A stretch of DNA of 64,000 nt from NCBI RefSeq assembly GCF_053078305.1, contig NZ_CP166879.1. One strand, 5' to 3'. Every line of letters starts with the position of its first letter. The first letter of the stretch is position 1. This document shows, piece by piece, positions 61,609 to 62,063 of this stretch. A program made the translations under genes and the position numbers. The notes under the pieces are model-generated. The model made no database searches, was not told the DNA's origin, and saw nothing but the letters and a program-made list of their open reading frames with translations.

Positions 61609-61639
61609 CTCGCTGATTAAAATATCCAGGGAAGGAAAT

Positions 61640-61903
61640 ATGATCGATCTGGAAAACCAGGAACGGGAGATTATCAATTTAATGTTCAGCCAGCGTATTT
61701 CCTGGCTAGCCGCCGTGCGTATCAGGCATAAATTATCGCTTGCTGAAGTAAGTAAAATGTTAGGTATCTCCATTAATTCTCTAAAACAGATCGAAAAGAC
61801 GGAACGGCTTAGCTCAAACATCAAAAGCAAAATGGCAGAAATTTATGGTTGTCCACCAGAGTTGCTGATATGCCCTTCCTGGATGACGGCTGAACATAAA
61901 TGA
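61640..61903 (+). CDS. Small helix-turn-helix (XRE-like) protein of unknown function
   Basis: 87-aa frame from internal ATG of track ORF 61226..61903 with AGGGAAGGAAAT ribosome-binding site; HTH-like segment LSLAEVSKMLGISINSLKQIEK. Confidence 0.55.
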   Translation: MIDLENQEREIINLMFSQRISWLAAVRIRHKLSLAEVSKMLGISINSLKQIEKTERLSSNIKSKMAEIYGCPPELLICPSWMTAEHK

Positions 61904-62002
61904 ATAGATTCGTGAATAGATACTTGAATGGATTTTATTATCTATCCATATGAAAAATAATAGTAAATCTATAAATCAGTTGCTATTGATGAATAGATAC
62001 TA

Positions 62003-62035
62003 AAAAGCCGGAGCAGTCTCCCGCTCCGGCTTAAC
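62003..62035 (-). terminator. Terminator 3' of deoD (end of deoCABD operon)
   Basis: AGCCGGAGCGGGAGACTGCTCCGGCT hairpin followed by TTTTT on the minus strand, 30 nt after deoD stop. Confidence 0.65.
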
Positions 62036-62063
62036 ACAACAATCGCCTTTCAGCGAAACGCAA

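Follow-up and report, generated by a model that had tools for sequence, protein, structure and literature searches.

In the 64,000-nucleotide stretch of contig NZ_CP166879.1 (RefSeq assembly GCF_053078305.1) analyzed here, referred to in the following as the window, the genes lplA and deoD are separated by an interval of 455 bp (61609–62063). In E. coli K-12, this slot holds the 1332-bp gene hipH (also called yjjJ). HipH is a growth-arresting kinase of the HipA family that has no antitoxin gene, and how it is restrained is an open question (PMC8262856; PMC9948734). We found that the window carries the hipH-less allele of a two-allele locus. The reading that we favor, with a probability of about 0.7, is that hipH has been replaced, that an array of 9-bp repeats in the interval is the orphaned operator of hipH, and that the small helix-turn-helix (HTH) gene now present there, encoding 87 amino acids (aa) and here called HTH-87, is the accidental neighbor of that array. 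The allele structure, the linkage of the array to hipH across the family and the homology of the small gene were observed directly, and are described below together with the other evidence on the array.

Two alleles between deoD and lplA

The interval is bounded by the lplA stop codon at 61608 and by the end of the minus-strand deoD gene at 62064, and the two genes converge on it. In K-12, hipH lies on the deoD strand and its stop codon abuts that of lplA. A preliminary description of this DNA had stated that yjjJ is missing and that the interval spans only about 455 bp, and both the measured bounds and the comparison with K-12 bore this out. No hipH coding sequence is present in the interval: homology to hipH alleles stops at the ATG, and the minus-strand frame opened at this relic start codon closes after 26 codons.

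When the interval was searched by BLAST across E. coli and aligned to K-12, a comparison that the preliminary description had suggested, at least 80% of it was present in 4057 of 5426 complete E. coli genomes (≈75%), referred to in the following as carrying the HTH allele. The hipH gene was present in 1348. Together, the two sets account for 5405 genomes, leaving about 21 with neither. The HTH allele and hipH are alternatives at one site. K-12 matched the interval only at query positions 287–455, and the similarity of the hipH genomes was restricted to this same part, which starts at window position 61895, the complement of the hipH ATG. Seen from the other side, homology to hipH-type genomes ended at the lplA stop codon and resumed at query position 287. 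The segment in between (61609–61894) has a GC content of 0.38–0.40, compared to 0.55–0.63 in its flanks. The features of the locus, with the basis for each in brackets, are as follows:

60592–61608, plus strand: lplA, lipoate-protein ligase A, the left flank common to both alleles (list of open reading frames (ORFs); lplA in matching RefSeq records)
61609–61894, no strand: allele-specific AT-rich segment in place of the 1332-bp hipH (homology breakpoints, drop in GC)
61628–61636, plus strand: Shine–Dalgarno-like AGGGAAGGA ahead of the 87-aa ORF (reading of the sequence; unchanged in 8 of 9 aligned alleles)
61640–61903, plus strand: HTH-87, an 87-aa HTH gene of the Xre/Cro-C1 type (Pfam, PHROG, AlphaFold2 model, relatives)
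61895–61897, minus strand: relic hipH start codon, CAT on the plus strand, which is codon His86 of HTH-87 (alignment to K-12 and other hipH alleles)
61901–61909, minus strand: proximal repeat 1, reading ATCTATTCA in this orientation, with a TGA that serves as the HTH-87 stop (invariant in all aligned alleles)
61913–61921, minus strand: proximal repeat 2, 12 bp from repeat 1 (counterpart of K-12 4621745–4621753, within a Reg-Seq repressor site)
61925–61933, minus strand: proximal repeat 3, in the variant form ATCCATTCA that Salmonella also has (motif search, locus comparison)
61934–61989, minus strand: 56-bp spacer, position of the predicted hipH promoter in hipH genomes, diverged here (22-locus spacer profile, promoter scan)
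61990–61998, minus strand: distal repeat, whose start precedes that of proximal repeat 3 by 65 bp (motif search, multi-locus comparison)
62005–62032, minus strand: intrinsic terminator of deoD, directly followed by the distal repeat (terminator scan, inverted repeat)
62064–62783, minus strand: deoD, purine nucleoside phosphorylase, the right flank common to both alleles (ORF list, RefSeq records)

The hipH gene also lies between deoD and lplA in Salmonella, in Citrobacter and on a third enterobacterial contig, with the same repeat sites in each, and E. albertii carries hipH as well. Because hipH occupies the slot in other enterobacteria, it is the earlier occupant, and the HTH allele arose later. 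Ancestral Enterobacteriaceae would have had deoD, hipH and lplA in this order and in convergent orientation. In the lineage of the window, the hipH coding sequence, from start to stop codon, would then have been swapped for a 286-bp AT-rich fragment carrying, on the opposite strand, an 87-aa Xre-type gene, a truncated relative of the antitoxins that partner ParE on plasmids and phages. The operator array would have been left behind to drift without its cognate protein, and HTH-87 and the repeats would be neighbors by accident of the replacement rather than partners.

Among Escherichia lineages, the diversity of the allele-specific block (window 61609–61989) is 0.02–0.05, compared to 0.08–0.10 in the adjoining ends of lplA and deoD, and its synonymous divergence is below that of lplA. 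This suggests that the HTH allele spread among these lineages fairly recently, perhaps horizontally, which would account for the good preservation of the relic array. K-12 represents the rarer type. In three quarters of complete E. coli genomes, a small antitoxin-like gene stands in place of hipH, and caution is called for in extrapolating hipH phenotypes of K-12 or of uropathogenic E. coli to other strains. The allele in the window is an unremarkable one, common and already annotated, and contains what appears to be a regulatory relic in decay; RefSeq labels the 87-aa ORF "helix-turn-helix domain-containing protein".

The repeat array and its linkage to hipH

Exact copies of the 9-mer TGAATAGAT start at 61901, 61913 and 61990. 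A direct copy with one mismatch, TGAATGGAT, starts at 61925, and an inverted copy, also with one mismatch, lies at 61940–61948, inside the spacer. These are the three direct copies, the variant and the inverted copy that the preliminary description had noticed. It had overlooked that the first three sites (61901, 61913 and 61925) keep a strict 12-bp period, and that the TGA of the first copy doubles as the stop codon of the 87-aa ORF. The window contains five exact copies, compared to 0.33 expected, a number reached in none of 100 shuffles, and three of the five fall within 98 bp. A motif search, which the preliminary description had suggested for the genome, placed the other exact copies in the window at 21952–21960 and 33042–33050 only. 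Both are single intergenic copies without a tandem partner, and are probably there by chance.

In the minus-strand reading, the K-12 sequence is ATCTATTCA-agt-ATCTATTCA-cga-ATCTATTCA-tta-ATG, ending in the hipH start codon (proximal repeats at NC_000913.3 4621733–41, 4621745–53 and 4621757–65), with a fourth copy after the deoD terminator. The repeat sites are kept in Salmonella, in Citrobacter and on the third contig, even though the DNA between them cannot be aligned. A pattern scan for TGAATAGATNNNTGAATAGAT, run on one genome per species (100,044 species), returned at least 120 loci. At 70 of these, a HipH homologue (30–95% identity) lies 8–194 bp downstream, always in the same orientation, with two or three copies at the 12-bp period just before it. 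Array and hipH occur together in Enterobacterales, Xanthomonadales/Lysobacterales, Burkholderiales, Rhodocyclales and Nitrosomonadales, and no gene other than hipH accompanies the motif consistently from one bacterial class to another. Among the matches listed in the species scan, there was about one motif pair per genome. The array is linked to hipH family-wide. Most likely, the repeats constitute an operator arrangement of the antitoxin-less kinase that is conserved and had not been described before.

To our knowledge, the 9-mer fits none of the DnaA box, the PhoB/OmpR/TorR-type boxes and the marbox, and none of these identities would account for the linkage to hipH beyond the enterobacteria. 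A full-text literature search for TGAATAGAT and ATCTATTCA returned only primers and short hairpin RNAs. A literature search for a HipH operator returned a paper on the phylogeny of the Hip kinases alone, and the literature examined describes no such operator.

The distal site lies 64–66 bp upstream of the first proximal site at 28 of 75 loci examined, the window included, where the 65-bp spacing is kept exactly (61998 to 61933). A profile of 22 loci shows TTTACC/TTGACn at spacer positions 29–34 and TATAAA at the edge of the array. In Enterobacterales, the former resembles a −35 element at a constant position and the TATAAA extends into the first proximal repeat; in Xanthomonadales, TTGACT abuts the array. 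No Shine–Dalgarno sequence was found in any hipH examined. A sigma-70 consensus scan for a minus-strand promoter in the relic spacer found none, and no good −35 in register, although the scan was silent on the K-12 spacer too, where the promoter was placed from the multi-locus spacer profile and the transcription start predicted in Reg-Seq. The ancestral layout would have been one ATCTATTCA site just after the deoD terminator, then the promoter spacer, most commonly giving 65 bp to the first proximal site, and two or three proximal ATCTATTCA sites at the 12-bp period over the transcription start and leader, ending a few bases before the ATG. In the window, no ORF for a HipA_C kinase with a winged helix follows the array, and the module is therefore a relic and not a working member.

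Several loci with the motif had additional features. On an enterobacterial metagenome contig (locus L003, 1880–2900), four ≈120-bp repeats resembling repetitive extragenic palindromes (REPs) or bacterial interspersed mosaic elements lie between deoD and the distal hipH site, with a 163-aa ORF (2332–2823) that resembles a REP-associated transposase. In E. coli TB354 (L165, 817–1245), deoD and the distal hipH repeat are set apart by an inserted IS200C transposase gene. A second HipH subfamily, 35–38% identical to K-12 HipH, has the same ATCTATTCA array (L026, L079, L050 and L105); its hosts are Enterobacter sp. BIGb0383, Proteus alimentorum and Mangrovibacter. In Acinetobacter towneri and a related genome (L048 and L135), a motif pair lies 16 bp before an ORF resembling DNA-3-methyladenine glycosylase I, with no hipH nearby. 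In a Verrucomicrobiaceae metagenome-assembled genome (MAG; L018–L022), a motif pair is accompanied by a copy 152 bp upstream and is followed, after 19 bp, by a 354-aa P-loop ATPase ORF; this unit occurs on five contigs, as expected of a mobile or multi-copy element.

The N-terminal region of HipH is the candidate reader of the array. A model of residues 1–100 consisted of three helices followed by a two-strand wing, with a predicted local distance difference test (pLDDT) score of 93.8. The solved folds nearest to the model of residues 1–55 were ArsR/SmtB structures, with a root-mean-square deviation (rmsd) of 1.6–2.5 Å over 52–55 residues, and a search by sequence found no relative of solved structure. 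In the third helix, the predicted recognition helix, residues S25, Q26, S30 and R31 are invariant in 18 HipH proteins that are 34–59% identical to the K-12 protein. A sample independent of the motif was taken from a viral-contig collection, where loci were picked by protein similarity and 15 had upstream DNA. Nine of these combined canonical repeats with the helix SQPTxSR, and in the other six, which keep the 12-bp period, the repeats are of the type ATTCGT or ATACGT and the helix is NRMTLSR or TR(P/T)TLSR. Covariation of this kind would be expected from direct recognition. The array is most likely an operator read by the N-terminal winged helix of HipH itself, and HipH would repress its own gene through the ATCTATTCA sites. 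Probably, one winged helix would occupy each direct repeat, and the distal and proximal sites would bracket RNA polymerase.

Published data on K-12 bear on this model. In Reg-Seq, positions −115 to +45 around the predicted yjjJ start site at 4621716 were mutagenized (PMC7567609, supplementary files 5 and 13), and a repressor site without an assigned factor was found at +30 to +45 (PMC7567609). This site takes in K-12 repeat 2 and the beginning of repeat 3, and stops at the end of the construct. HipH is a candidate for the repressor. The Hip phylogeny paper noted the N-terminal HTH of HipH and gave the control of the kinase as unknown (PMC8262856). Another study placed control by cyclic di-GMP (c-di-GMP) at the hipH promoter and reported HipH to be a DNase that damages DNA (PMC11452175).

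HTH-87 and the orphan array

The 87-aa HTH ORF with a ribosome-binding site noted in the preliminary description was also recovered. Its ATG at 61640 is preceded by the purine-rich AGGGAAGGA (61628–61636), and the protein matched Pfam HTH_3 (PF01381) with 29.4 bits (cut-off 23) over residues 23–76. It aligned to positions 54–121 of the 122 positions of phrog_7241 in PHROG (E = 3.4e-10), and was 36% identical to residues 42–115 of a 118-aa Leclercia plasmid protein encoded after a ParE_toxin (PF05016) gene. The AlphaFold2 model of HTH-87 has a five-helix Cro/C1 fold (pLDDT 86.8), closest to CylR2, the SinR N-domain, P22 c2 and 434 Cro (rmsd 1.5–2 Å over 53–56 residues). Proteins of the Cro/C1 class bind inverted repeats as dimers.

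The nearest outside relatives of HTH-87 (32–38% identity) are the C-terminal HTH halves of 118–122-aa proteins. Their genes directly follow ParE_toxin genes on Leclercia, Serratia and Pasteurella plasmids and in the Pasteurella phage Pmp14, and their operons have CTTATA/TATAAG palindromes and no TGAATAGAT. The start of HTH-87 aligns to residue 40–52 of 118–129-aa relatives, so that the N-terminal 45–50 residues are missing; in Pmp14_0033, this part gave a sub-threshold RelB-like match. No toxin gene lies beside HTH-87: the ORF follows the lplA stop codon after a gap of just 31 bp, and there is no other such ORF in the interval. HTH-87 is best described as an orphan, an N-terminally truncated DNA-binding domain of the antitoxin type. 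The frame crosses the junction, the old hipH ATG being read as His86 and the stop codon lying in repeat 1. Two other identities were tried and rejected. As a HipB-like antitoxin, HTH-87 gave no BLASTP alignment to E. coli HipB at E up to 100; as an inverted remnant of the hipH HTH, it had no similarity to HipH residues 1–110 (E up to 100) and belongs to a different fold class.

The HTH-87 family consists of Escherichia members (E. coli, Shigella, E. marmotae and unnamed clades) and one 44% identical orthologue. The latter is encoded on a single 1.4-kb contig, is of equal length and has the same lplA-to-deoD position; the lplA of its genus is equally distant from Escherichia and Citrobacter. 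Word-index and exhaustive HMMER searches returned these and generic Xre hits, a search from the 44% orthologue added nothing more, and NCBIfam and PDB sequence searches of HTH-87 gave nothing above their cut-offs. The pairwise ratio of nonsynonymous to synonymous substitutions (dN/dS) is 0.1–0.6 for HTH-87, compared to 0.01–0.06 for lplA. Inactivated forms are frequent: BH100 has a nonsense codon, ECO_1_S has a frameshift, and the databases contain many truncated versions.

The proximal repeats are identical in six hipH alleles, E. albertii included. In nine HTH alleles, the nucleotide diversity of repeats 2–4 is 0.05–0.075, compared to 0.026–0.073 for the spacer, and two of the nine are short of one 12-bp unit. 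On the contig of the 44% orthologue, only a degenerate TGAACAGAC is left, at the stop codon. The array in hipH-less genomes thus appears to be a drifting, functionless orphan.

Other losses of hipH were also found. In Enterobacteriaceae bacterium RIT691 (L066, 600–1253), the hipH slot holds a gene for a 217-aa DUF2238 membrane protein in the orientation of hipH, its ATG abutting the last ATCTATTCA repeat. In Serratia plymuthica (L055, 1473–1560), Pantoea sp. RIT-PI-b (L083, 3446–3545) and the enterobacterial MAG UBA2655, hipH is gone and the array is followed by ytjB within ≈100 bp. The orphan arrays of loci L055, L083 and L081 (2967–2990) have perfect repeats, followed by mini-ORFs of 11–19 codons or by nothing, and lplA is not at these loci. 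In E. coli WB61 (L166, 2501–2692), all that is left of hipH is its first 140 bp, adjacent to lplA, and at locus L129 (10233–10388) a degenerate winged-helix fragment of ≈50 aa is left. The array-retaining losses were found via the motif, so that retention is built in and losses that remove the array are invisible. For this reason, and because the other losses end inside the gene, the common junction is not read as a recombination mechanism.

Several points weigh against the array being an orphaned HipH operator. The loci selected by the pattern contain the motif by construction, only their linkage to hipH being informative, and about 45 of the 120 listed have no hipH nearby. Most of these are in AT-rich genomes, minisatellites or contig ends, and many fit chance, which by our own estimate would give about 9 hits at even base composition and more in AT-rich DNA. 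The covariation between helix and repeat amounts to one or two evolutionary switches only. Repeat 1 is invariant in the HTH alleles, but it overlaps the last codons and the stop of the ORF, and the comparison of drift, with nine HTH and six hipH sequences, is a small sample. Reg-Seq assigned a repressor site at −24 to +18 of yjjJ to MarA (PMC7567609), and other factors therefore act on this promoter too. Finally, chromatin immunoprecipitation with exonuclease digestion (ChIP-exo) of myc-tagged YjjJ in K-12 gave zero binding sites, and its authors regarded YjjJ as lacking an HTH (bioRxiv 10.1101/2021.06.10.447994). Expression or tagging may explain this negative result, yet it is the only direct test of HipH binding.

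The negative ChIP-exo result, the Reg-Seq repressor without an assigned protein and the response of the hipH promoter to c-di-GMP (PMC11452175) would all fit a host factor other than HipH, either that repressor or the mediator of c-di-GMP, which would bind the array and still function in strains without hipH, controlling antisense transcription into the HTH gene or read-through of the deoD terminator. The survival in the window of the full four-site layout with its exact 65-bp spacing, and the perfect-copy orphan arrays in Serratia and Pantoea, agree with such a factor. We nevertheless find it unlikely, as hipH alone is consistently linked to the motif across bacterial classes, changes in the motif accompany changes in the recognition helix of HipH, the genomes listed have about one motif pair each, repeats 2–4 have no excess conservation in the HTH alleles, and the in-register −35 has been lost from the spacer. 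The proximal repeats might also act as RNA, AUCUAUUCA repeats in the hipH leader controlling how the mRNA is translated or how stable it is; those in the window would then be an element of the 3′ untranslated region of the HTH-87 mRNA, read antisense. The position of the Enterobacterales proximal repeats between the predicted −10/transcription start and the ATG, and the lack of a Shine–Dalgarno sequence in the hipH genes examined, could be explained in this way. The distal copy, however, lies upstream of the promoter, right behind the deoD terminator. In Xanthomonadales, the array directly adjoins the TTGACT −35, so that the promoter itself is overlapped by repeats and the mRNA would be nearly leaderless, and covariation with a DNA-binding helix favors action at the DNA level. 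A role as RNA is thus very unlikely.

The preliminary description had seen in the array an iterated protein-binding site, possibly the operator of the HTH protein or a remnant recombination site. The resemblance to protein-binding sites and the notion of a remnant stood, while neither of the two assignments did. HTH-87 could regulate itself or a neighboring gene through the array, being a credible DNA binder by prediction and encoded next to it, with its stop codon in the invariant repeat 1. We give this very little credence, because the array is older than the gene, accompanying hipH across Proteobacteria and fronting hipH in K-12 without any 87-aa gene, and because it lies downstream of the ORF, away from its promoter. 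Repeats 2–4 drift, and units are lost, in genomes that have the gene, and the 44% orthologue retains the gene without the array. Furthermore, the homologous antitoxin operons have palindromes of a different sequence, the Cro/C1 fold is of the class that binds inverted repeats, and the protein resembles neither the HipH winged helix nor HipB. As to recombination, at least five independent hipH losses (the window, RIT691, Serratia plymuthica, a Pantoea strain and MAG UBA2655) have their junction ≈10–35 bp from the last repeat, and HipH has been called a DNase (PMC11452175), as if bound HipH provoked breaks beside its operator and made the array a hotspot from which hipH is repeatedly lost. This is extremely improbable: the cases were ascertained by an intact array, losses that remove it going unseen (L136 is one such case), the losses in WB61 and at L129 end within the gene, and there is no recombinase gene or feature resembling a recombination site. 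Nor was there any sign of a dedicated recombination site in the interval, where the array is merely one edge of the replaced segment. Overall, we consider it distinctly unlikely that the array is still in use in the 75% of E. coli without hipH, or that a HipH–operator complex drives recurrent excision of hipH at the junction. If the array is live, its four-site layout would be kept by that use, as a landing pad that silences incoming hipH or as a site recognized by HTH-87 or by some other host factor.

If the array is an orphaned HipH operator, as we favor, the locus provides a testable operator for an antitoxin-less toxin, hinting at how HipH is kept in check where it is present. The DNA target offered to the field is the 9-bp word ATCTATTCA, in three sites at a 12-bp period plus one 65 bp upstream. 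The predicted reader is a winged helix with SQxTxSR, and nature provides a switch from SQ to TR/NR that goes with a change from ATTCA to ATTCG.

Relation to known systems

HipB is a separate Xre-type antitoxin that binds as a dimer to palindromic operators of the form TATCCN8GGATA. The hipBA promoter is repressed by an HTH product of its own locus, which acts on several short operator copies (PMC8262856). The hipH locus resembles hipBA in that the promoter of a HipA-family kinase gene is covered by several copies of one short operator. Unlike in hipBA, no antitoxin gene is present, the domain presumed to bind is a winged helix that forms part of the kinase polypeptide, and the sites are 9-bp direct repeats with a 12-bp period and a distal site 65 bp off. 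The window differs further from hipBA in having no toxin gene at all. Compared with the monocistronic kinase HipH/YjjJ (clade X of the Hip tree), the window has the same slot and the same upstream DNA as K-12, but lacks the hipH coding sequence. The predicted fold of HipH residues 1–55 is like that of the ArsR/SmtB winged-helix repressors, which are free-standing dimers on inverted repeats, whereas HipH has its winged helix joined to a kinase and has direct repeats as candidate sites.

HTH-87 aligns, at 32–38% identity, with the C-terminal HTH of the ParE/RelE-linked Xre antitoxins, in which the toxin gene comes first, as in higBA (phrog_7241), and shares with them the motifs AAWR...LSQ...LGI...QIEK...YxC. 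Unlike these antitoxins, it lacks the N-terminal 45–50 residues and a neighboring toxin gene, and it has an extra 11-residue tail that extends into the old hipH leader. Like solo chromosomal antitoxins, HTH-87 is partnerless, moderately constrained (dN/dS ≈0.2) and often inactivated; unlike them, it is without a toxin-neutralizing part, and DNA binding would be its only possible action.

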